64,000 nucleotides of DNA from a bacterium. GTDB taxonomy: Bacteria > UBA8248. The stretch spans positions 1,632,001-1,696,000 of the forward strand of contig OZ241875.1 of NCBI GenBank assembly GCA_965203325.1, read 5' to 3'. Positions within the stretch are counted from its first letter, which is position 1; every line of letters starts with the position of its first letter. Of this stretch, positions 838 through 64,000 are shown piece after piece. The notes beneath the pieces were generated by a model. It saw nothing but the letters and a program-made list of their open reading frames with translations, had not been told where the DNA came from and made no database searches. The position numbers were made by a program, and so were the translations under genes.

Positions 838-1200
838 CTACCAATTTACAGTAACAGTCTGATGAAACAGAACATCAAGACGTAGCTTGCGTTTCTCCAT
901 ATGTTTAGAGAGTCTTTTCGCAGAATGAAGGGCCTTCCATGATGCTTTCAGTGCTTCAAAGAGCGAAACCATAGCTTCATCAGGTGTCGAACCTTCCCCA
1001 TGATGCGGCAAATCCGGTTCCATCAACATATCGGCAAAATATCTTCCGTCCATCTCGTGTGTCTGAACAAAAATCGGGATTCCTTCATAGGATTCTGCTT
1101 GTTGTTCAACTGGGGCGTAAGCAACTAATGAGGAACTCACTAATGTAGGATTACCACCATATGAGGTGTTATCTACAGTATCAAGTAATGTGGTATTCAT
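838..1200 (-). CDS. HicB-like antitoxin
   Basis: DGRYFA...DLPHHGEGSTPDEAMVSLFEAL matches the HicB N-terminal G-x-T-x-x-EA motif; 10 nt upstream of the HicA-like gene. Confidence 0.65.
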   Translation of the reverse strand: MNTTLLDTVDNTSYGGNPTLVSSSLVAYAPVEQQAESYEGIPIFVQTHEMDGRYFADMLMEPDLPHHGEGSTPDEAMVSLFEALKASWKALHSAKRLSKHMEKRKLRLDVLFHQTVTVNW

Positions 1201-1225
1201 TTCGTCATATACTCTTTTATGTATG

Positions 1226-1477
1226 TTATTCAGATTCCAGCACTGTTATGATAGTTCCACTTCTCACATTGTAAATTGGATTTCCATCCAATCCACGCTC
1301 ACCTTTGAATTTAGCAACTTCAACTACATCCACTTTTATTCGCAATACAGTCCCATCAGCAAGCCTGATTTTCATCGGCTTCTCAATGATCTCTTCTATC
1401 TCAACCATCTCAACATCATGCATTTCACCTGTTGTTGGATGTTTCATTTTTCGCTCTACCATAACTAACCTTTTCAT
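1226..1477 (-). CDS. Small beta-rich hypothetical protein, first gene of the AT-rich cassette
   Basis: 83 aa, IRLADGTVLRIKVDVVEV...DGNPIYNVRS; co-oriented, 25 nt upstream of the HicB-like gene. Confidence 0.7.
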   Translation of the reverse strand: MKRLVMVERKMKHPTTGEMHDVEMVEIEEIIEKPMKIRLADGTVLRIKVDVVEVAKFKGERGLDGNPIYNVRSGTIITVLESE

Positions 1478-1735
1478 TTATTTTGAAGTAGGGATTTCCT
1501 TGTTGAACACTCAAAAATAGCATTATCTATCTGTTGCGATATTGCCAGGATCGATTGAACAACAATCTTCGCCAACCACCTAAGTAATCGGAAGCCTGTC
1601 GGAACTCTCCCTTTAGTATGAGCATGGATGCGAGTAGCACCTCAAACAACCATACCCTATCTCATAAATCGCAATATTTCGCCATATCCTGCCATACATT
1701 GCGAAAATCTCAACCAGTCCGGAATAAGCCTCCTC

Positions 1736-2311
1736 TCACTCGATCCTTTCCTCGAGCTTCCGCGTCGCCGCCTCGACGATTTCGCACACCTTTTCCATCA
1801 CCTCGGGGTGCGCGCGGAACGACTCGCGCACTTCCTTGACGATCGCCATCTTGGCGGCGGCGAAGCCGTCCTGGTATTCGAGCTTGAGTTTCTCGGCCGA
1901 TATACGGCTGCGCTCCAGCCCGTTCACCATCTGGGCGAGTTTCTCGGGCGTCAGGCCCTCGAAGGATTCCTTCCCCATCTGCGAGACGGCCTCGACCGCC
2001 TGGGTCATCAGCATCCGCCGCGCGGCCGCCGCTACCTTCTCGCCCGGGTCCCTGCCCTCGCCGTCATAGGCCATGACTTCTTCGATCAGCTCATCCACCA
2101 TGGCTTCCACCCGCCTGGTCTTGCGGATGCCTTCCAGCAGGCGGTTGTTGCGCGCCCCGATGGAGCCGAGCCCTATCTTCTCCCCGGTGGCCTTCTCGAA
2201 GGCCTCGGCCACCTCCTTATAAGTCTTTCCCTCGGCGAGCATGGGGTCGACGACTTTCTCGGCCCCGTATTCCACCACCTTCGACCTGCGCCCCCGCCTC
2301 CTCTCCATCAC
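1736..2311 (-). CDS. DUF3486 / Mu gp27-like (small terminase-like) protein
   Basis: N-terminal RGRRSKV motif, then an HTH (TYKEVAEAF...IGLGSIG) and a helical C-terminus; follows a gp26-like gene as in Mu-like phages. Confidence 0.7.
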   Translation of the reverse strand: MMERRRGRRSKVVEYGAEKVVDPMLAEGKTYKEVAEAFEKATGEKIGLGSIGARNNRLLEGIRKTRRVEAMVDELIEEVMAYDGEGRDPGEKVAAAARRMLMTQAVEAVSQMGKESFEGLTPEKLAQMVNGLERSRISAEKLKLEYQDGFAAAKMAIVKEVRESFRAHPEVMEKVCEIVEAATRKLEERIE

Positions 2312-2640
2312 AACTCTCCCACGAGGATGTCGGGCGAAGCGGAAACGGCGCCTTCGAGCAGGCCGCGCCCCTTGCGGGTCAGGTGCGCCTCGTAATCCGT
2401 CAGCAGGCGGCCGAAACCGCCCGGGGTGCGCTTTTCCAAAAAGCCCCGCCCGGCCAGATCGTCCACGAAGGCCTCGAGCGTCTCGCGGCCCAAGGGCGCG
2501 CCGTCCTCATGGTGGCCCGCCTCGCGCAGCGCGCTCCACAGCAGAAGGCTGCCCACGCTCGATTCCGCGCGCAAGGCATCCTGGTAATACAGCGTCTTCA
2601 ATATGTCGCCGCGCAGGACGCGGGCCGTCAGTTCATTCAC
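2308..2640 (-). CDS. Mu gp26-like winged-helix protein
   Basis: LRGDILKTL...L..RGFLE...AHLTRKGRGLLEG...PDI pattern; strong GGAGGTG RBS; 4-nt overlap with the gp27-like gene. Confidence 0.7.
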   Translation of the reverse strand: MNELTARVLRGDILKTLYYQDALRAESSVGSLLLWSALREAGHHEDGAPLGRETLEAFVDDLAGRGFLEKRTPGGFGRLLTDYEAHLTRKGRGLLEGAVSASPDILVGEL

Positions 2641-2647
2641 GATGAAT

Positions 2648-2747
2648 CACCTCCCCAATGACTTTCATACCGGCGTACCCGACGCCGGTTATCGTAATCC
2701 AGACCTCTTCCGTGCACTGAAACACCTCCTCGATGACTTTCATACCG
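2648..2747. repeat. Two 25-bp direct repeats, 75-bp period
   Basis: CACCTCCCCAATGACTTTCATACCG (2648-2672) vs CACCTCCTCGATGACTTTCATACCG (2723-2747), 23/25 identical. Confidence 0.85.
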
Positions 2748-2893
2748 AAACGCCAATCACCCCGCGTGAGGCGGAAACTCTCTCAATATAGAATGCGGCT
2801 GCATCTCCGGCAGACCGGCAAATGCGGGGAAATGCGGGCGCGTTGAGAAAATAATTTCCGGGTTGCACAATGCCGCCCGAGGAGGAGGCTTCG

Positions 2894-3301
2894 ATGCGCT
2901 CAAGCGCGCGGAAAATCATCACCACGCTCGCCGTATTCGCGCTCTGGTTCGCGTGGCTGCCCGACGCGCCTGCCCTCGCTCACGGGGAGGAGGAGATCCT
3001 CCTGTTCGCCTATCTGGCGGAAGAGCGCAACCTGCTGAGAATCTCGACCGCCATCGTGGGCGGCATCATCCTGGCGATGGGCGTCTTCATCACCCAGCAA
3101 TCGCGCGCCGAGGCGAGAGAAAACGCCCGGGCAGAATTCACGGGCTTCAGGGTGATATTGCCGGGGCTGCTCGTCACCTGCCTGGGCGCCGCCGTGCTGT
3201 TCACGGCCGCCTTCATCCTCCCCGAGCAGATCAAGATTGTGCACGACCATCCCCTGGAGCACGTCGAGACAAAGACCACAAAAAGTAAAAGCGGCCCGTG
3301 A
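2894..3301 (+). CDS. Hypothetical membrane protein (prophage cargo)
   Basis: GGAGGAGG RBS before ATG 2894; signal-like N-terminus plus two hydrophobic helices; opposite strand to the phage genes. Confidence 0.7.
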   Translation: MRSSARKIITTLAVFALWFAWLPDAPALAHGEEEILLFAYLAEERNLLRISTAIVGGIILAMGVFITQQSRAEARENARAEFTGFRVILPGLLVTCLGAAVLFTAAFILPEQIKIVHDHPLEHVETKTTKSKSGP

Positions 3302-3570
3302 GGGGTTGTTGGAAAGTCCCACAGAGGGAGCGCGCTGAGTTTCACTCCCCCCTTGAAGGGTCTGGCTTCCCGAGGGGAAAGCCAGACGAGGAAGCCGAAC
3401 CGACAGGTGAAGGCTGACTCAGTGGGGGGACATACCACAGAAAAAGCTCCCCCCACCAACTCGCCTGCGGGCTTCGCCCTTGCCTCTTTGACTCCCCCTC
3501 AAGGGGGGAGTGAATTTCAAAAGCGTGATTGAAACCCAAAAATATTTCGCGGGGCTTTTTCACCCCCCCC
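3302..3570. mobile_element. MITE-like element with nested palindrome, copy 1
   Basis: Left end GGGGTTGTTGGAAAGTCCC and a degenerate right end; internal 16-bp IR TTCACTCCCCCCTTGA/TCAAGGGGGGAGTGAA (3341-3514); core shared with 34372-34555. Confidence 0.7.
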
Positions 3571-3594
3571 AAGCCCTCCCCGCGCAAAACTCCC

Positions 3595-4017
3595 TCACTT
3601 CGCCTTTCCCGTGAGCTTCTCGACGGTGCGAAACGCGCCCAGACCCAGCATCCCCAGGGTGAGTTCGAGTAGCCCGTCCGCCGAGACGGGATAGGGCGCG
3701 AGTTCGCCGCTCATCAGCACCTGCCGCGTCCAGAGCCATGCGCCGAGGGCATACTGGGGGATGAAATAGAACGCCAGCGAGACGCCGCAGATCCACAGGA
3801 TGAACGGCCTGCCGCCTGCGACGAAGACGCTGCGGTGGGCGGCTTCGATTTTGTTGATCTCGTTCTGGGCTTCGGCGGGGCGCATCATCAGCTTTTGTTT
3901 TATCGCCTCCGCCGCGCGCCGCTCGTCCGGCGTCTCGACGAACCTGTCGATGACGTTGGCGACGCCCTCGGCCGCCGATACGACGCCGCCGCCGATGAGC
4001 TTTTCCAAAAAGGCCAT
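3595..4017 (-). CDS. 3TM-type phage holin (GTA_holin_3TM-like)
   Basis: VIDRFVETPDER...EINKIEAAHRSVFVAGGRPFILWICG...LGMLGLGAFRTVEK; ATG overlaps the endolysin stop (TGATG). Confidence 0.85.
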   Translation of the reverse strand: MAFLEKLIGGGVVSAAEGVANVIDRFVETPDERRAAEAIKQKLMMRPAEAQNEINKIEAAHRSVFVAGGRPFILWICGVSLAFYFIPQYALGAWLWTRQVLMSGELAPYPVSADGLLELTLGMLGLGAFRTVEKLTGKAK

Positions 4018-4430
4018 CACGCGCTCCTCATGCGCTCGGCGACCCGGCCCGCCCGGGCGGGGAGTTCCCGCGCGTAAACTGAATCGAGCGCCTCCCCGGC
4101 CGCTTCTGCGTAATCCCCTGCCGCGAGCGCGGCCCACATCTTCTGAAAGCCCAGAAGACTCGGCACACCCATGTTGTAGGCCATGTTCAGGACCGCTCGC
4201 TTCGCAGCCGGTTTGAGACCCCCGTAAACCTCGCCCACACGGGAGCGCTCCAGTTCTCCGGCCATCAGGTCGAGACGATGCCGGAGGAGCAGTTCGGCCT
4301 CGGCTTCCGATATGCCGTCTTCGAGCAGCGTTCCGTAGCCGATGGTCTTCTTGCCCTTGCTATCCAGATACACCACCGGCACGAAACCCTCCTCGCGCTT
4401 GATCTCCGCTACGAGTTCGTCCGTGAGCAT
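4017..4430 (-). CDS. Phage endolysin, GH24 (T4-lysozyme-like)
   Basis: EEGFVPVVYLDSKGKKTIGYG gives the E-x8-D-x5-T catalytic triad; LNMAYNMG motif. Confidence 0.9.
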   Translation of the reverse strand: MLTDELVAEIKREEGFVPVVYLDSKGKKTIGYGTLLEDGISEAEAELLLRHRLDLMAGELERSRVGEVYGGLKPAAKRAVLNMAYNMGVPSLLGFQKMWAALAAGDYAEAAGEALDSVYARELPARAGRVAERMRSA

Positions 4431-17403: not shown

Positions 17404-17868
17404 CTAGCCCAGACCCTCGATTGCCGCGAAGAGCTTATCGTCGTCGGGCTTCTCAGGCGGAGCGGACGTCACCTCCATGTAGGCGACGTTCCCGTCCTTG
17501 TTGACGAGAATCACCGCGCGGTTGCTGAAGCCCTTGTCGTTCAAGAGCCCATAGGCCGCGCACGTTCCCTTGCCGAAGAAATCGCTCAGCAGCGGGAATT
17601 CGATGCCGTATTTCTCGGCCCAGGCGGCGTGCGCGAACGGGCTGTCCACGCTGATGCCGATGACCTCGCAGTCGGCATTGTCGAACTTCGCCTTCTCCGC
17701 CTGATAGGCGGGCAGCTGCTCGCTGCACACGGAGGAGAAATCGAACGGGTAGAAGCAAAGCAGCACGTTCTTCTTGCCCCGGTAATCGCTCAGCTTGATC
17801 GTGTCGCCCTCGGCGAGGGTTCTCGGCAGCTCGAAATCGGGAGCCGCATCACCTACGCTCAGTGCCAT
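17404..17868 (-). CDS. Peroxiredoxin (AhpE-like, AhpC/TSA family)
   Basis: [16 protein letters not shown] peroxidatic motif, GISVDS, FPLLSDF. Confidence 0.9.
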
Positions 17869-17880
17869 GAGACAACCCTC

Positions 17881-18468
<588 letters not shown>

Positions 18469-20562: not shown

Positions 20563-21300
20563 ATGGACAGAAGCATCTGGGCGACCTGGTACGATCTGCC
20601 GAAAGAAGACGAGGCCGAATACAACGACTGGCTCCACCACACCCACATCAAGGACGCGCTCAAGCGTCCCGGCTACATGTGGGCGGCCCACTATGAACTC
20701 GTGGACAGGGAATCGCCCAAATCGAAGAAAAAGGACCATTTGGCCTACACGGACGACCCCTCGATCCCGGGCGGCACGGAGTTTCTGCTGCTCTTCGGGG
20801 GCACGAGTGCTGAGGTGTTCCTGAGCCCCAACCCGGCGCAGCTTGCGGAGACCTATTCCGATGAGACGAAGGCGATGATCGGTAAGCGAATCGGCGAGCG
20901 CACGGGCATCTTCACCGAGGTGGACCGGGTGAACGGCCCCGCCGCCGCTACCCGCGCTCTCGGAGGCGTGCCCGCGCCAATCGTCCAGATGGGAACCTTC
21001 AACTGCTTCACGCCCGAGGATGATTTCGACTTGAGTTCGTGGTACGCGCAGGACCGCCTGCCCGCAATGAAGTACATGCGCGGCTGCGTGGGCACGCGCA
21101 AGCTCGTCTCGGTGGCGGGATGGGCGAAACACTCCATCTTCTATGAGTTCTCCTCGCTGGAGATGGTCCTCGAGCACTTCCCGCGCGCGGACAAGCTCTT
21201 CCCCGGCGAGAACGACTGGTCGTACCACGTATGCCAGCGCCTGCTCCACGCACCTGGCTCGCCCACGCGCGGCAAGCGCATCTGGCCGCCCGTGGAATAA
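20563..21300 (+). CDS. Hypothetical protein with tandem dimeric alpha/beta-barrel (EthD/DUF4286-like) domains
   Basis: EAEYNDWLHHTHI....RPG and a second WYAQDRLP....RG repeat; start reassigned to ATG 20563. Confidence 0.65.
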   Translation: MDRSIWATWYDLPKEDEAEYNDWLHHTHIKDALKRPGYMWAAHYELVDRESPKSKKKDHLAYTDDPSIPGGTEFLLLFGGTSAEVFLSPNPAQLAETYSDETKAMIGKRIGERTGIFTEVDRVNGPAAATRALGGVPAPIVQMGTFNCFTPEDDFDLSSWYAQDRLPAMKYMRGCVGTRKLVSVAGWAKHSIFYEFSSLEMVLEHFPRADKLFPGENDWSYHVCQRLLHAPGSPTRGKRIWPPVE

Positions 21301-21316
21301 AGCGGAGGACGCGCGC

Positions 21317-22006
21317 ATGAACTACATGAAGCCGATACCGGTCGAGGAGGCCGAAGGCGAAGCCGCGAAACTCTTCCAAGGCGTGACGAAAATGCTCGGG
21401 CGCGTGGCGAATTCCTTCGCCGTCATGGCCTATCAGCCCCACGTCGCCAAGGTCATCCTGCCGCTCACCGTCACCCTCATGCGCGAGGGGCTGGGCACGG
21501 TGCTGCCCACCAAGATCAAGGAAATCGCCGTCATCAAGACGAGCCACCTGAACGGGTGCGACTACTGACTCGGACACAACACGGCGCTCGGTCGAGACGC
21601 CGGGGTGACGGAAGCGCAGGTGCAGGAAATCTGCTCGGACGCCTATATGGATTCAAAGACGATGAGCGCGCGGGAGAAGGCCGCCGTCCTGTGGGCGGAG
21701 CACGTAACGCTGAACACCGCCAAGACGCGCGACGACGTGTTCGAGGAGGTGCGGCGTCACTACGACGACCGCGAATTCGTCGAACTCACGATGGTCATCA
21801 CCTACTTCAACATGAGAAACCGCTTCCAGGACGCCCTGCGCATCCCGCTCGATGAGCCGAAAACGATATCGGGCATCACCATCGGGCGCAGGCAGGACCC
21901 CGAGAACCTGAAAGCCTATCTCGCGGACGTGGTGGAGGGGTGGCCCGAGAGCTTTCCGGGGCCAGTGTCTGAGGATGGAGGTGTTGAGAAACCTTCGATT
22001 TCGTGA
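21317..22006 (+). CDS. AhpD-like/CMD-family protein, probable selenoprotein (CxxU)
   Basis: ORFs 21143-21568 and 21605-22006 share a frame and are separated only by TGA 21566-21568 in ...TSHLNGCDY-U-LGHNTALGRDAG, the AhpD CxxC..H position; GGAGG RBS before ATG 21317. Confidence 0.85.
21569..21608 (+). promoter_or_regulatory. Putative bacterial SECIS element
   Basis: CGGCG-CTC-[GGTC]-GAG-A-CGCCG hairpin (21582-21602) with a G-first apical loop about 22 nt after the UGA. Confidence 0.7.
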
Positions 22007-22055
22007 TTCGGCGTATGTAGCAGACCGGGGAAGGAGGAAACTTCACTCTCCTCTT

Positions 22056-22361
22056 GGGGTTGTTGGAAAAGGCCACATTTCAGGGGTAGAAGAGAAGTCC
22101 CTCTCGAATGGAAAAGCAACCCCCCCTACCCCCCCTTGTCAGGGGGGTATAAAAAAACGATGCGCCCCTGCCGGGCTGAGGGGGCTTTGTTATTTCTTGC
22201 CCCTGGCGAGGGGGGTATGAAAAGGCGACGCCCGCCGCCGGTAGAGAGGGGTTTGCTTTTTCTTGTCCCCCTGACAAGGGGGGGTAGGGGGGGGTTGCCT
22301 TATGGGGTTTCCCTTTCAAGGGGGTTGCCATTACCCTCTCATGGGCTTTTTCAACAGCCCC
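22056..22361. mobile_element. MITE-like element with nested palindrome, copy 2
   Basis: TIRs GGGGTTGTTGGAAAAGGCCA / TGGGCTTTTTCAACAGCCCC (17/20 match); internal ~30-bp IR GCAAC6TAC7TTGTCAGGGGG at 22116-22298. Confidence 0.75.
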
Positions 22362-22392
22362 GGAATAAAGAGAATTCAGGAGGCCGTCAGCC

Positions 22393-27101: not shown

Positions 27102-27163
27102 AAAGGCCTTTTGTTTGACCTCGTCTCGGTTGTAATGAGTGGGTGTGGTCGAGAAATTTGCGT

Positions 27164-27745
27164 ATGAAAGACAGAAAAGCGAACATATTGAAGGGTTACG
27201 ATTATTCGCAAGGTGGATGTTATTGCGTCACGGTTTGTGTGCAGGACAGAGAGGAATTGTTCGGTGAAATCATCGACGGTGAAATGGTTTCAAATGCCGC
27301 AGGTAAAATGGTGAAAACAACATGGAACGAATTGCCGGAATTCTATAGCGGTGTTGAAACGGATCAATTCCAGATCATGCCGAATCACGTCCACGGCATC
27401 ATCGTCATTACGGGAAACGAATTCCCCCACGGAACTGTAGGGACAGGCCCCCGTGCCTGTCCTGAATATGCCCATCCTGACATGGGACAACCACGGGGGG
27501 TTGTCCCTACGATGTCATTATCGGATATCGTGCATCGGTTCAAATCTATGACGACCCATAGATACATTGCGAACGTCAATGATGGTGAATGGAGACCCTT
27601 TGATAGGAAACTCTGGCAACGATCATTCCACGATCACGTCATCCGCGACTAGGAAGACCTCAACCGCGTCCGGGAATACATCCAGAACAATCCGTTGAAA
27701 TGGGCGCTGGATGAGGAAAACCCAGCCAATCATGCGGGGCCGTAG
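27164..27745 (+). pseudogene. REP-associated tyrosine transposase (RAYT, Y1 HUH) with a premature stop
   Basis: YDYS, MPNHVH and WQRSFHDHVIRD, then TAG 27650-27652; the frame continues EDLNRVREYIQNNPLKW to TAG 27745, so the catalytic Tyr lies after the stop. Confidence 0.88.
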
Positions 27746-30401: not shown

Positions 30402-30911
30402 CTACGACCCAACCTGATTTGTTGGGTTGTATTCGTCAAGCGACCATTTCAGAGGATTGTTCTGAATGTATTCACGTATGCGGTTGAGGTCGTCATCGTC
30501 GCGGATAACGTGATCGTAGAATGATCGTTGCCAATTGAAACAAGCGAGACCATGTTCGCGTATACGTTTCGATGACGTGGTCTTGAACGCGCCGACCAAT
30601 TCCGACAATGATTTGATTTTCAACGCATCTGTAGGGACAGGTCGCGACCTGTCCCAATGGGGTTGGATTATCAAAATGCCGTGGAAATGATTCGGCATCA
30701 CGACGTATTCATCCGATTCGACATAATCATATCGCTCGGACAACCATCGCCATCGCGTATCAACAATCTCTCCTGTCTGGTTCAAAACCATCTCGCCGTC
30801 GACAATTTCGCCGAGCAATTCCTCTCTGCTTCGCACACAAACCGTCACGAAATAACATCCCGCTTTTGAATAATCGTAACCTTCCAACCTGTTCAACTTT
30901 CTGTCTTTCAT
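30402..30911 (-). mobile_element. REP-associated tyrosine transposase (RAYT), intact
   Basis: YDYS..GCYFVT, MPNHFH and WQRSFYDHVIR...EYIQNNPLKW motifs; flanked by REPs. Confidence 0.9.
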
Positions 30912-30991
30912 TCTTGAATTTCCAAATTTCTCGACCGCAACCATTCCTTACAGCCGAGTCGCCGATAAATAAAAAGGGTGGGTTTTCTCCT

Positions 30992-33045: not shown

Positions 33046-34182
33046 ATTAACGAATCCCATCAAGACCCCGAATTCCTGAACGACCTCGGAATCCGCCGCG
33101 TCATCAGCGCGCGCACCCGCCAGACCGTCTTCGGCGGCTCGAAAATGAGGCCGGAAGTCTGGACCGCCATGCAGGAGGCGAACGCCGCCCAGGTGGACAT
33201 GAACGAGTTGCACGCCAAGGCGGGCACGCGCATCGCCGGGATGACGCAGAACGAGGCGGCCTACGTCACGAGCGGCTCCGCCGCGGGCCTCGTGCTGTGC
33301 GCGGCCGCGTGCGTCACGGGCGGGAACCCGGCCCTCATGGACAGGCTCCCCTTCACCGACGGTCTCAAGAACGAAATCGTGATCCACCGCTTCCAGCGAA
33401 ACCACTACGACATCAACATCCGCCAGGCGGGGGCGCGGCTCGTGGAGATCGGCTCGCACCGCCAGACCCACCCCTGGGAGTTAGAGGAGGCCATCGGCGA
33501 GAAGACGGCGGGCGTCTTCTATTTCCCGGGCCGCTACGCGGGCGGAAACATCCTGAAGCTCAAGACCATCATCGAGATCGCGCACGGCAAGAACGTCCCT
33601 GTAATCGTGGACGCCGCGTCGCAGCTTCCGCCGTCCGCCAATCTCTGGCGCTACACCAAGGAGATGGGGGCCGACGCCGCCATCTTCAGCGGGGGAAAGA
33701 GCATCGGCGGGTCGCAGAACACGGGAATCATCCTGGGCAAAAAGGAGCTCATCGAGGCCTGCGCCATGATGGGAAGCCCCAGGTATTCGGTCGGCCGGCC
33801 CATGAAGGCGGGGCGCGACGACATCGTGGGCCTGGTCTGCGCACTCGAACATTACCTGGACGAGGGCGAGGCCGAACAGTACGCCCACAACGAGCGGTGG
33901 TGCGAGTTCTTCATGGAGCGCACAGCCGGGATGAAGGGACTCTCGCCCCGCGTGAGGCGCCCCAATTCCCTGGGACAGGATTTGCCCGAAGTCGTGATCG
34001 AAATTGATGAGGATGCGCTCGGGAAATCGCGAGATGAGGTCGCCGATGCGCTATGGGAGTGCGAAGTAAGAGTGCAGGTCGGCATATCGGGCGAGTCGGG
34101 AATCTTCATCTCCCCCGACCCGCTGACGGATGAAGACGCGGAATACCTGTGGGCGAGGTTTCAGGAGGTTGTGTCATCGTAG
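33046..34182 (+). CDS. SelA/DgaE-like PLP-dependent enzyme
   Basis: VTSGSAAG, VIVDAA, FSGGK (PLP Lys) and GRPMK motifs; conserved N-terminus LGIRRVISA..T..GGS lies upstream of the first ATG, implying a start near ATT 33046. Confidence 0.85.
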   Translation: MNESHQDPEFLNDLGIRRVISARTRQTVFGGSKMRPEVWTAMQEANAAQVDMNELHAKAGTRIAGMTQNEAAYVTSGSAAGLVLCAAACVTGGNPALMDRLPFTDGLKNEIVIHRFQRNHYDINIRQAGARLVEIGSHRQTHPWELEEAIGEKTAGVFYFPGRYAGGNILKLKTIIEIAHGKNVPVIVDAASQLPPSANLWRYTKEMGADAAIFSGGKSIGGSQNTGIILGKKELIEACAMMGSPRYSVGRPMKAGRDDIVGLVCALEHYLDEGEAEQYAHNERWCEFFMERTAGMKGLSPRVRRPNSLGQDLPEVVIEIDEDALGKSRDEVADALWECEVRVQVGISGESGIFISPDPLTDEDAEYLWARFQEVVSS

Positions 34183-59092: not shown

Positions 59093-60258
59093 ACACCATC
59101 TACATGGACCACAACGCGACCACCCCGATGCGGCCCGAGGTTCTGGCCGCGATGCAGCCCTATCTCGGCGAGAAATTCGGGAACCCGAACAGCATCCACC
59201 GGTACGGCCGCGAAACCAGAATCGCGATTGAAGACGCCCGCGACCATGCGGCGGCCCTCATCGGCGCCGTTGACAGCGATGAAATCTTCTTCACCTCAGG
59301 CGGTACGGAGAGCGACAACTGGGCGCTCCGGGGCGTCGTCTCCGCTGCGGGGGGAAGGAGCCACATCGTCACCACGGCGATCGAGCACGAGGCCGTCCTC
59401 GCGACGTGCCAGACCCTGGAAGCGGAGGGGGCGGAAGTCACCTACGTGAAGCCGGACCGGAAGGGGCGCGTCATAGCCCAAGACGTGGCGGCGGCGATCC
59501 GGCCGGATACCAAAATCGTGTCCGTCATGTGGGGCAACAACGAGGTCGGCACGGTTCAGCCGATCCATGAGATCGGCGCACTTTGCCGGGAGCGCGGAAT
59601 CCTGTTCCACACCGACGCCGTGCAGGCGATGGGGAAGGAGGCCATCGACGTGGAGCGCGCCGGCGTGTCCCTGCTTTCCGCCACCGGACACAAATTCAAT
59701 GCTTTGAAGGGCGCGGGCTTTTTATACGTCAAAAAAGGAACCGAGCTCGACCCCTTCATGACCGGCGGCGGGCAGGAGCAGAAACTCCGCTCGGGCACGG
59801 AGAACGTGGCCGGCATCGTGGCGTTGGGGGAAGCGTGCCGCATCGCGAAAGAAGAAGGCCCGCAATCCGCCAGGAACGTCGCCGCCATGAGAGACCGGCT
59901 CGAAAACGAAATCTGCGAGCACGTTCCCGACGTGCTGGTCAACGGCGATACGGCGCACAGGCTGCCCGGCACGTCGAACCTGGGCTTCATCGGCGCGGAA
60001 GGGGAAACACTCCTGATCCGCCTGGATCTCGAGGGCATCGCCGTAAGCACGGGGGCGGCCTGCAGCTCCGGCTCCCCCGAGCCCAGCCACGTTCTTCTGG
60101 CGATGGATTTGCCCCAGGAAACCGTGCAGGGCTCGCTCAGGTTCAGCCTCGGCTACGGCAACTCGGATGCGGACATCGACAGGCTGCTCGAAGTGCTGCC
60201 CGAGGCCGTCAGCAAGGTGCGCGAGATGGCGCCGCGCCTCAAATCGACGAAAACGTGA
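59089..60258 (+). CDS. iscS: Cysteine desulfurase (IscS/NifS)
   Basis: [24 protein letters not shown] and STGAACSS motifs. Confidence 0.93.
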
Positions 60259-61403: not shown

Positions 61404-63800
61404 TCACGCCCGGGAGATCCGGCACAGCAAACTCTTGAGGTTCGTCTGGTCCGAGCACGGGTCGCGCTGCGTGATGTCCGTCAGGAAATTCACCGACCGC
61501 CAGGGGTGGTAGGGCTGGCGCTCCCCCCAGCCGATGGGAACGTATACCGCGTCCTCCCGGATGCCCGCATTCACCCAGGCCATCGCCTCGATGGCGCCGT
61601 GCGCCGTCTCCACCCGGACTTTCTCGCCGTCTTCGATTCCCAGTTCTCGCGCTTTCAGAGGATGAATCTGGCAATAGAGGTCCGGCCACATCTCCTGCGC
61701 CTGCCAGAAATAATGCGTCCAGCTATGAAAATGCGGCGCGGGCGGGCGGCCCGTTATGAGCGTCGTCTCGAAGCCTTGCCGGCGTAGCACATCGCCCGGG
61801 TTCTTCCCGTCGGGCTGAATGATTCTGGCGGCGCGGGAACCCGTGGGCGCCTTGGAGAACGGGGAGATGATCGCCAGATCGTCATCTTCGTGTTCATATT
61901 CGAGATACGGCAACCCCAGGAGATTCTCTTTCTCGCTGTAGAACTCAGGCAGCGCTGAGAGTCCGACTTGAGAGAATTTTTCCTCCAACGCCTCCGTCCA
62001 GAACTCCAGCCTTCCGCTCGGCGTCGGGAAGCGCTTGCCCTCCGGCTGCCCGGTGGCGGTCGTTCCTTCGAGATAAAGCGTCTCCTGCTCCGGGGCGTCC
62101 TCGCTCGCGACGGGGAAACGCACCCACCGGTAGGGAACCGAGTGGAGGCGTTTCTGCGTCACGCCCCGGAGGAAATCGTTGTCGATGCACATCTCGTCCC
62201 AGAACCTGCCCGGGTCCTTGTATTCCTCTTTCATCACGTCGCCGAACCCGAGGCGCCTGCCGAGTTCCGTCCATATCCACCCGTCGGGCTTCGCCTCTCC
62301 CGGCGGGTCGATCATCTTGTCGATCCAGACGATTCTCCTGTCGTCGTTCGTGCGGCCCAGCTCGCCTTTCTCGATCCCCCCCGCCGCGGGCAGCACGTAA
62401 TCCGCATAGGCTGAGGTCTCGTTCACGAACAACTCGATGTGGACGATGAGGTCGAGCGCTTTGAATGCCGCACGCGCCTCATCCTGACCCGGCCATTGCG
62501 CGAGCGGGTTGTTGCACGTGATGAGGCCCTTGATGGGATACGGCTCCCCCTTCCGCATGGCGCTCAGCCAGCCGGCCGGGCTCCTGCGCACCATCGGCTT
62601 CCCGATTTCCGCCCGTCTGTGCTCGGGCGCGTTGGCGGCGATGGGCGGCCCCGCCGTCATGTTCACATAGGCGCCGCCCTTTCGGCCCCAGTTCCCCGTT
62701 ATCGCGGCGACGAACATGAACGCCCGGTTGGTCTGCACCGAGTTGGTGTGCTGGTTGAGTCCCCGGCTCCCGAAGATGACGCAGCCGTCCGCCCCCGCCA
62801 CGTCCCCGGCGAGCGCGCGAATCTCATCCGCGGGTATGCCCGTCACGCCCTCCGCCCAATCGGGGGAATAGCCCTTGGCGATAATGAAATCGCGCCAGCG
62901 CTCCCAGCCGAGCACCCATTCATCGCAAAAAGGCTGATCGTGCAAATTTTCAGAGAGAATATGGTGGACCATGGCTAGGCCGAGCGCCATGTCGGTGCCG
63001 GGGCGGATGGCGAGCCATTTGTCCGCCTTGCTCGCCGTCGCGGTATACCTCGGGTCGACGACCACCATCTTCGTCTTGTTCCTGATGCGCCAGTCGTTCA
63101 CCTTGCCGAAGTAGACCGGGCGCGTCTCCGCCTGGTTGTCCCCGACGTAGAGATACATCCCCGCGCTGCCGATATCCTCCGGCGTATAGCTGTTCCCGTT
63201 GCCGTTGATCCCGTGCGTCACCTCGTAGGCGACCACCTTGCCCGCCGCGCAGAACGGGTCCGTCCCCTGGAGATTCGGCGTGCCCCACATCTGGCTGAAC
63301 AGCCGCGCATAGCCTTTCTGCGTAATCAACCCCGTGCGGGTCCCTACGAACATCGCCAGCGCCTCCGTGCCCCACTTTTCCTTCAGGACTTCGAGTTTCG
63401 CGGCGATCTCATCGAGCGCCTGCTCCCAGGTGATGCGCTCGAACGCATTTTCGCCCCGGCGGCCGACGCGCTTCAAGGGATATTTCAGGCGGTGTTCGTT
63501 GTGGTGGAGCTGCAGCGTGAACTGCGCCTTGGGGCAGATTTTTCCGTCCAGGACGGGGTCTTCATCGTTCCCCGTCACGTTGATGAGCTTATCGCCCTGG
63601 AAATGAAACTTGGCGGTGCAGCAGTTGAAGCAGAAATTACACCCCCCCGGCTCGACGCGGTCCGCCTGGAGCGCGTTTTTGTCGTGCAGGTAGGGAAAGG
63701 CGGGGCCTTTCTCCTCGAAAACGCCGTTCGCTTCGGGTGAATCCACGAACCGGGGCCGGCTCGGTTTTTCACCCGAACCCAAGCCGTCCTTTCCGTTCAC
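61404..63800 (-). CDS. Molybdopterin (bis-MGD) oxidoreductase catalytic subunit, DMSO reductase superfamily
   Basis: CNFCFNCC...CPK Fe-S motif, RL.YPLKR, VDPR, IRPGTD, ADYVLPA and a C-terminal molybdopterin-binding domain; no Tat signal. Confidence 0.93.
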   Translation of the reverse strand: MNGKDGLGSGEKPSRPRFVDSPEANGVFEEKGPAFPYLHDKNALQADRVEPGGCNFCFNCCTAKFHFQGDKLINVTGNDEDPVLDGKICPKAQFTLQLHHNEHRLKYPLKRVGRRGENAFERITWEQALDEIAAKLEVLKEKWGTEALAMFVGTRTGLITQKGYARLFSQMWGTPNLQGTDPFCAAGKVVAYEVTHGINGNGNSYTPEDIGSAGMYLYVGDNQAETRPVYFGKVNDWRIRNKTKMVVVDPRYTATASKADKWLAIRPGTDMALGLAMVHHILSENLHDQPFCDEWVLGWERWRDFIIAKGYSPDWAEGVTGIPADEIRALAGDVAGADGCVIFGSRGLNQHTNSVQTNRAFMFVAAITGNWGRKGGAYVNMTAGPPIAANAPEHRRAEIGKPMVRRSPAGWLSAMRKGEPYPIKGLITCNNPLAQWPGQDEARAAFKALDLIVHIELFVNETSAYADYVLPAAGGIEKGELGRTNDDRRIVWIDKMIDPPGEAKPDGWIWTELGRRLGFGDVMKEEYKDPGRFWDEMCIDNDFLRGVTQKRLHSVPYRWVRFPVASEDAPEQETLYLEGTTATGQPEGKRFPTPSGRLEFWTEALEEKFSQVGLSALPEFYSEKENLLGLPYLEYEHEDDDLAIISPFSKAPTGSRAARIIQPDGKNPGDVLRRQGFETTLITGRPPAPHFHSWTHYFWQAQEMWPDLYCQIHPLKARELGIEDGEKVRVETAHGAIEAMAWVNAGIREDAVYVPIGWGERQPYHPWRSVNFLTDITQRDPCSDQTNLKSLLCRISRA

Positions 63801-64000
63801 GCGACTGTTTTCCCTCGCGATTTTCTCCAGATATATCGTCTGCGGCTTCAGGAGAAAATGATCGTGATCCCGAAGATGACGACCCTCTCCCTCCGCTTGT
63901 TCGAGAAGCGTGTCCCTTTCGCCGAAAGAAATCGCGTAGCCCGGACAGATCTCGGCGCAGGCGGGCTCCAGATTCTTCTCCCGTCTGTCGGGGCAGAGGT
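63769..64000 (-). CDS. 4Fe-4S dicluster electron-transfer subunit (DmsB/NrfC-like), C-terminal part
   Basis: Hand translation ...LCPDRREKNLEPACAEICPGYAISFGE...; overlaps the start of the catalytic subunit. Confidence 0.85.
   Translation of the reverse strand, partial: PLPRQTGEESGARLRRDLSGLRDFFRRKGHASRTSGGRGSSSSGSRSFSPEAADDISGENREGKQSRERKGRLGFG

Follow-up and report, generated by a model that had tools for sequence, protein, structure and literature searches.

The 64,000-nt stretch of bacterial DNA considered here (positions 1,632,001–1,696,000 of contig OZ241875.1, assembly GCA_965203325.1; hereafter the window, to whose positions all coordinates refer) carries a gene for an AhpD-like protein of the CMD family. 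An in-frame TGA stands where this family has the second Cys of its redox motif, and a hairpin resembling a bacterial selenocysteine insertion sequence (SECIS) follows within the coding sequence. The features of the locus are collected in Table 1. The gene runs as a single frame from its ATG to its terminal TGA, codon 84 being the sole interruption, and read-through gives a 229-aa product with the motif SHLNGCDYULGHN, in which Cys81, the putative selenocysteine (Sec, U) at position 84 and His87 are arranged as NGC-D-Y-U-L-G-H. Under genetic code table 11, with which frames were called, the same frame is listed as two open reading frames (ORFs), 21143..21568 and 21605..22006. The initial annotation of this DNA had taken these halves for one frame crossing a single TGA on the second Cys of the AhpD motif; the frame and a CMD domain match bear this out, and its description of gene and hairpin proved correct in every detail that could be checked. 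There is one copy of the gene in the window, and it is the last member of a same-strand cluster that begins with a tRNA-Lys gene and continues with genes for a 129-aa CMD-family protein and a 245-aa protein.

Table 1. Features of the AhpD-like gene and its same-strand neighbors (window positions)
Feature	Position	Strand	Remarks
CMD-family protein without CxxC, 129 aa	20144..20533	+	First protein gene of the same-strand cluster; PF02627, 1.9e-10; conserved upstream in orthologous loci
Tandem ferredoxin-like (EthD/DUF4286-like) protein, 245 aa	20563..21300	+	Ends 17 nt before the ATG of the selenoprotein gene
Shine-Dalgarno-like GGAGGA	21304..21309	+	7 nt ahead of ATG 21317; read directly from the sequence
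AhpD-like (CMD-family) selenoprotein gene	21317..22006	+	229 codons plus terminal TGA 22004–22006
TGC, Cys81	21557..21559	+	First residue of the CxxU redox motif; invariant in the family alignment
In-frame TGA, codon 84	21566..21568	+	Putative selenocysteine codon; second Cys position of the CMD/AhpD motif
CAC, His87	21575..21577	+	Conserved His of CxxUxxH; invariant in one family alignment, nearly invariant in another
SECIS-like hairpin GGCGCUC[GGUC]GAG(A)CGCC	21583..21601	+	Inside the coding sequence; A21597 bulged
Apical loop GGUC	21590..21593	+	
C-terminal extension	21854..22003	+	About residues 180–229 (~45 residues); conserved W209-P-x-x-F-P motif

The domain assignment draws on sequence on both sides of the TGA. 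The PF02627 (CMD) match covers residues 60–128 and so spans codon 84, with 43 bits against a cutoff of 23, and the TIGR00778 (ahpD_dom) cutoff is also passed (32.1 versus 27.8). The best NCBIfam match, NF053654, aligns with residues 4–178 of 229, and the second best, TIGR01926, aligns residues 4–177 with model positions 3–174 of 178. An AlphaFold 2 model of the protein is all-helical, with a predicted local distance difference test (pLDDT) score of 89.6 and a predicted template-modelling (TM) score of 0.86; the best Foldseek match in the PDB is the AhpD of Deinococcus radiodurans (6k40_A; E 8.8e-07, TM score 0.80 normalised to the target). When solved structures are searched with a family profile, PA0269 (2ijc; 3.8e-17), the Bmp8 debrominase (9e-11) and 6k40 (1.2e-10) are matched. 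Domain models scoring above their cutoffs, an all-helical fold and a redox pair followed by a conserved His are thus found together, as in other members of the AhpD/CMD superfamily. The C-terminal extension noticed in the initial annotation is present, and in the model it forms helices at residues 181–190 and 195–207 that precede the W209-P-x-x-F-P motif. It is not, however, peculiar to this gene: alignments show it conserved throughout the subfamily, and it is the solved AhpD-like relatives that end near query residue 182.

A set of related loci (labelled L001–L080) comprises the best 80 of 266 relatives found by a scan of genome contigs. The codon-84 column holds TGA in 77 of the 80 and TGC in three (L056, L060 and L069), which is the interchange of Cys and TGA among homologues that the initial annotation had proposed as a check. 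The loci are labelled as Nitrospinota/Nitrospinae, SAR324, Candidatus Tectomicrobia, Acidimicrobiia, Rhodospirillales, Verrucomicrobiales, Chthoniobacterales and Burkholderiales, and among them are at least ten genomes with three TGA-containing paralogues each. A protein database search with the read-through sequence gave 63 matches among 357 candidates (entries labelled P####), and at the same column the 22 longer homologues have Cys (11), Ser (6), Trp (4) or Leu (1). The ratio of nonsynonymous to synonymous substitution rates (dN/dS) was computed between the window gene and 17 orthologous loci; it is 0.042–0.331 over the 83 codons before the TGA and 0.087–0.325 over the 130 codons after it. 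Because these ranges match, the half of the gene that follows the TGA is under the same purifying selection as the half that precedes it. Residues L85–G96, lying between the TGA and the next start codon, are likewise conserved, with H87, N88, T89 and G92 among them.

These comparisons bear on the simplest alternative, that a nonsense mutation or a faulty assembly produced the TGA in what is a decaying pseudogene. Table 11 does read a stop here, and two relatives look damaged. L015 (10001–10696) has two compensating frameshifts around the motif, with its TGA, counted among the 77, lying between them, and L016 (10001–10558) lacks 36 residues ahead of the motif; each may be a damaged copy or an error in the assembly of a long-read metagenome-assembled genome (MAG). 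Neither decay nor error would be expected, however, to place a TGA in the same column of all but three of 80 independently assembled loci from several phyla, to leave dN/dS after the TGA like that before it, or to preserve a domain and a predicted fold that need both halves. We give this explanation next to no weight. A TGA unique to one strain with relaxed selection downstream, the pattern that the initial annotation had named as telling against a selenoprotein, is not what the relatives display.

The database matches show how such genes are usually stored. Most of them (41 of 63) are no longer than 155 aa, and in the alignment rows shown the C-terminal fragments begin at query residues 92–113, where the first start codon past the TGA lies, so public gene calls often contain the split. 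The fragments had been foreseen in the initial annotation, which expected the gene to be misannotated as two pieces. A second kind of misannotation, in which the TGA is translated as Trp, had not. Trp stands at the codon-84 column in entries P0019, P0020, P0022, P0024 and P0041; since P0019 is 98.7% identical to L067, whose DNA carries TGA, this Trp is an artefact of the caller's translation. Entry P0023 has Leu at the same column, though a locus 91.7% identical to it (L072) has TGA, and this Leu may reflect a true TTA or again the caller. Five further entries (P0004, P0005, P0010, P0011 and P0013; 334–365 aa) have their first residues immediately past the Sec column of one AhpD-like domain; a second, complete domain follows, in which A/S..S takes the place of the redox pair. 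From their sequences, these are probably two-domain selenoproteins truncated at the TGA.

It is also conceivable that the gene is truly split, so that an 83-aa peptide ends at the TGA, translation restarts at GTG 21605 to give a 133-aa protein, and the two pieces cooperate. The GTG is present, and pieces of this kind are what callers report in the short database matches. The proposal is unlikely because codons 85–96 would be untranslated, yet they encode the conserved H87, N88, T89 and G92, which align with the Cys forms. The starts of the database fragments vary, as they would with arbitrary first-start calling, and the redox pair would lose its second member. In our judgement a split gene has a very slim chance of being the correct description.

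A third possibility is read-through in which no selenium is inserted: a reassigned code or near-cognate suppression would place Trp, Cys or Gly at the UGA. The Trp entries in the database could be taken as a sign of this, as could the fact that no Sec machinery is seen in the window. TGA nevertheless serves as an ordinary stop in this DNA, where it ends 25 of 60 window ORFs, the selenoprotein gene included, and no other coding-like in-frame TGA was found by scanning. Two scans of the window for further genes with an in-frame TGA gave none that is convincing; the only other match under the strict rules, the TGA at 60256, proved to be the stop of iscS with nifU downstream in the same frame. The Trp of P0019 is attributable to the caller, Trp in a CxxC site is without precedent among the Cys-form homologues and the conserved hairpin described below would be unnecessary. 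A reassigned code is excluded by the use of TGA as a stop, and decoding without selenium of any kind is in our estimation very improbable.

If UGA is instead decoded as selenocysteine, a SECIS element is expected just past it, and the initial annotation had placed a hairpin with a G-first GGTC loop about 22 nt downstream. Such a hairpin is present: the strand 21583–21589 pairs with 21594–21601, the gap from the TGA to the stem is 14 nt and 21 nt separate the TGA from the first G of the loop. A stem-loop 3′ of the UGA with a small G-containing loop, the feature named for bacterial SECIS elements in the Sargasso Sea study (PMC1088965), is thus what the sequence offers. To compare the hairpin across the family we used 77 sequences in register, namely the window and 76 TGA loci, of which 73 are distinct; the set excludes L015 and the three TGC loci. 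The position of the hairpin is kept throughout this alignment, and all 77 sequences agree in loop positions G25, G26 and C28. Among the 73 distinct sequences, the loop-closing pair 24–29 is always formed, by U-A in 41 and by C-G in 32; pair 23–30 is U-A in 55, U-G in 14 and something else in four; and pair 22–31 is C-G in 70 and otherwise in three. Overall, 79.3% of alignment cells are paired in the bulged structure, compared with 20.9–57.5% when the partner strand is slid; in an unbulged structure 72.8% are paired, and over both structures sliding gives 20.9–66.8%. The outer stem carries the bulged A in the window's clade and has no bulge in most others.

Codon usage in the hairpin is constrained as well. 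Among 18 orthologues, third-position diversity computed in seven-codon windows is 0.068 over the hairpin codons 89–95, versus a gene mean of 0.229, and seven of 209 such windows are as low. The codon for Gly92 is GGT in 64 of the 77 sequences and GGC in 13, despite a GC content of ~0.8 at third codon positions (GC3). A 4-nt GGUN loop follows none of the 1928 TGA triplets in the window when these are screened for a hairpin of equal stability. Taken across relatives, the combination of TGA and hairpin is far beyond chance as judged from the alignments, and the hairpin of the window sequence by itself is not exceptional.

We conclude that 21317–22006 is very likely one gene for a 229-residue AhpD-like thiol/selenol oxidoreductase in which UGA codon 84 is decoded as selenocysteine, a reading that rests on comparative sequence evidence and in which we have high confidence. 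Sec insertion would proceed by the bacterial route: the elongation factor SelB, carrying Sec-tRNA(Sec), would bind the hairpin at its GGUC loop and deliver the charged tRNA to the UGA 14 nt upstream, so that the ribosome would read through to the stop at 22004. In the protein, Cys81 and Sec84 together with His87 would make up a redox centre of the CxxU type, carried by the AhpD scaffold. The second Cys of Mycobacterium tuberculosis AhpD is the attacking residue; Sec84, which takes the place of that Cys, would be the likely nucleophile on a peroxide or disulfide. Cys81 would then resolve the oxidised Sec84 to a selenenylsulfide, and this could be reduced by a cellular reductant.

Several observations weigh against decoding as selenocysteine or against parts of this account, and most concern the hairpin. 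Taken alone, it folds unremarkably: the 75-nt fold has a z-score of −0.97, 32 of 200 shuffles fold as well, and under loose rules that ask for a G in the first two loop positions a hairpin of equal stability follows 66 of the window's 1928 TGA triplets. Rfam gave neither a SECIS family nor a tRNA-Sec over the whole window at gathering thresholds or over 21450–21750 at E values up to 10. The number of independent covariation events is small because the switch between U-A and C-G follows clades, and neither pairs with a change on both sides (245 of 500 shuffles as good; 154 of 500 in a second run) nor further pair types (500 of 500; 482 of 500 in a second run) go beyond shuffled alignments. Part of the nucleotide conservation can be put down to the peptide, since L-G-Q/R-x-A-G is itself conserved. 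One paralogue group (L026–L033 and similar loci) has the loop GGCC and a weaker stem (−6.5 kcal/mol). Loss of the hairpin, expected in the Cys forms, is seen in part: two of the three Cys-form loci have weak stems only (−6.6 kcal/mol), and in L060 a 7-bp stem remains stable (−11.4 kcal/mol) beneath a loop that differs and is 6 nt long. On the protein side, the cutoff of TIGR01926, a peroxidase-related subfamily, is not reached (61.8 bits versus 81.8), and the match to NF053654 is far below threshold (75.5 bits versus 310). Finally, no selA, selB, selD or tRNA-Sec gene lies within the 64-kb window, whose tRNA genes are those for tRNA-Thr and tRNA-Lys, and ARAGORN found no tRNA-Sec there or in the 80 loci with their flanks.

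For the Sec machinery we also searched the window and the 80 loci by tblastn with the Escherichia coli SelA, SelB and SelD proteins. This returned SelD in L055 and otherwise weak SelA-like matches only. In L055 the SelD part (motif CGGCGAK) is fused to a part resembling pyridine-nucleotide-disulfide oxidoreductases, in a gene at about 1054–3294 on the minus strand; this gene and the AhpD-like TGA gene converge, 36 nt apart. A fusion of this Ndh-SelD type is mentioned in the Global Ocean Sampling (GOS) paper (PMC2398784). In the window itself, the SelA-like ORF 33145–34182 encodes a pyridoxal phosphate enzyme of the DgaE family (selA_rel) rather than a selenocysteine synthase: it matches TIGR01437 at 3.1e-54 and scores 44.7 bits against the cutoff of 267.9 of TIGR00474, the SelA model. 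With its weak match to the SelA Pfam model, this ORF could mislead searches for Sec machinery.

The window DNA is 92–94.5% identical to L001, L002, L003 and L068 over ~7 kb with gene order conserved, and for that reason we place it in the MAG group labelled Nitrospinota to which these loci belong. According to the BSepDB entries as reported (PMC13326102), the MAG that supplies L019 and L024 has 54 selenoprotein genes and is assigned to GTDB phylum UBA8248, and two further UBA8248 MAGs have 50 and 48. For the selABCD genes that the initial annotation expected in the host, support comes at the level of the lineage only. A separate gene at the edge of the window, for a molybdopterin oxidoreductase (61404–63998, minus strand), has formate dehydrogenase alpha as its best NCBIfam match, below cutoff; it runs off the window end, so that its N-terminal region lies outside. 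FdhA selenoproteins carry Sec in their N-terminal region.

The gene directly upstream of the selenoprotein gene offers a possible functional context. Of the 80 loci, 35 have a homologue of the 245-aa protein: immediately upstream in the 19 orthologous loci, immediately downstream in 13 loci from a second group of paralogues and nearby in three Rhodospirillales loci (L066, L071 and L076). Two of the lineage's three paralogue groups show the pairing, as do some Rhodospirillales. No Pfam family matches the protein above threshold (DUF4286, E 0.007), and its look-alikes in the atlas are clusters that are unnamed or EthD/DUF4286-like. The structure model (pLDDT 84.6) is a tandem ferredoxin-like repeat whose nearest match is the anthrone-oxidase-like 5f9p (TM score 0.61), with further fold matches to cofactor-free oxygenase-like, chalcone-isomerase, coproheme-decarboxylase and sulfur-oxygenase-reductase proteins. 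Several His residues are invariant and Cys175 is nearly so.

That the selenoprotein and this neighbor form a dedicated two-protein system is an idea we put forward tentatively and consider rather unlikely. Within it, one possibility is that a small molecule is oxygenated, or converted in some other way, by the neighbor, leaving a hydroperoxide for the CxxU enzyme to reduce; another, by analogy, is a reductive dehalogenation as in Bmp8, with Sec employed as in deiodinases. We found no link in the literature of EthD or DUF4286 with AhpD or with selenoproteins.

The wider surroundings contain several further elements. Genes for an Fe/Mn superoxide dismutase and an AhpC/TSA peroxiredoxin lie back to back at 17404–18468 on the minus strand, 3 kb upstream of the cluster; their synteny is conserved in 18–19 loci, giving the region the look of an oxidative-stress neighborhood, but they are on the opposite strand. 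The spacer (22007–22392 in the window) from the selenoprotein gene to the next gene, which encodes a MaoC-like dehydratase, varies widely in length among relatives L001–L023: by match coordinates it is ~12 nt in L004, L005, L007 and L010, ~330–420 nt in the window, L001, L002 and L068, and ~1.9 kb in L003, L011, L015 and L022. Past the gene is a 37-nt inverted repeat (22120–22156 and 22257–22293) whose arms are 89% complementary and 100 nt apart. Two copies of its core motif lie in the window, against an expectation of none, and the motif is also present at other intergenic sites in L001 and L002; from its sequence it looks like a small element of the repetitive extragenic palindrome (REP) or miniature inverted-repeat transposable element (MITE) kind. 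Two ORFs of low GC3 (27143–27652 and 30402–30944), with partial matches to IS200-like Y1 transposases, flank the genes for an alcohol dehydrogenase and a fumarase. Phage-like genes occupy 1736–4430 on the minus strand and encode Mu Gp27-like, three-transmembrane holin (gene transfer agent type) and phage lysozyme proteins.

The gene is real but ordinary as selenoproteins go, and current knowledge is not overturned by it. It shows cleanly how standard callers can split or mistranslate a gene. Because relatives are stored as fragments or with Trp in place of Sec, counts of the AhpD-like family, and of selenoproteins in these MAG lineages, are too low. The gene is a further, well-supported member of a family abundant in the ocean, its hairpin could seed a covariance model of a kind for which Rfam has no match, and the conserved 245-aa neighbor is a concrete lead to the substrate.

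A known bacterial SECIS with which the hairpin can be compared is that of E. coli fdhF, taken from the K-12 record. Both lie inside the coding sequence just past the UGA, and both have a 4-nt GGUC loop on a 3-bp upper stem, below which there is a single bulged base. In the fdhF element the bulged U and the loop G and U are the contacts to SelB. The two differ in spacing, the loop starting 21 nt from the U of the UGA in fdhF and 24 nt from it, one codon further, here, and in the bulged base, an A in the 3′ strand of the present hairpin but a U in the 5′ strand of the fdhF element; most members of the present family have no bulge.

Among proteins of solved structure, PA0269 of Pseudomonas aeruginosa (2ijc/2o4d/7xw1) is AhpD-like and its TSxxNGCxYC aligns with TSHLNGCDYU. 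Both PA0269 and 6k40 carry Cys at the position of Sec84. Their His lies four residues past the second Cys (CxxCxxxH), whereas the present motif has three (CxxUxxH), and neither protein has the C-terminal extension. The Bmp8 debrominase (6ohi/6ohj) also has the AhpD/CMD fold; it aligns to query residues 16–182 and ranks seventh in the fold search. Bmp8 is a Cys enzyme that acts on bromopyrroles, its identity to the query is ~19% and a halogenated substrate is not indicated by the present data. NF053654, the ‘YciW-related (seleno)protein’ model, NF041238 and NF041047 likewise describe AhpD-superfamily proteins with Sec and Cys forms; the protein is not a member of any of them, its scores against the latter two being 29.4 versus a cutoff of 175 and 16.7 versus 110, likewise far short.

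The closest known system is the published family of marine AhpD-like selenoproteins, and the initial annotation was right that such proteins are known. AhpD-like (COG2128) selenoproteins with a CxxU motif and a bacterial SECIS were described from the Sargasso Sea in 2005, with 27 sequences (PMC1088965), and in the GOS study of 2008 AhpD-like 1 is among the most abundant families, with 299 selenoproteins and 902 Cys homologues (PMC2398784). BSepDB has a page for the AhpD-like family, and a 2026 review places the family under TIGR01926 (PMC13188914). As far as these accounts describe it, the published family shares with the present gene its domain superfamily, the CxxU motif with Sec at the second position, a SECIS past the UGA and widespread Cys-form homologues. 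The differences are the score below the TIGR01926 cutoff and the conserved C-terminal extension of ~45 residues. On this basis the gene very probably belongs to the published AhpD-like CxxU family and likely to the same subfamily, a placement by these shared features rather than by residue-by-residue comparison with the published sequences. What may be new is modest: the conserved neighbor, the occurrence of Sec paralogues in threes within single genomes, and a hairpin shared across the family that stands outside the present Rfam models.

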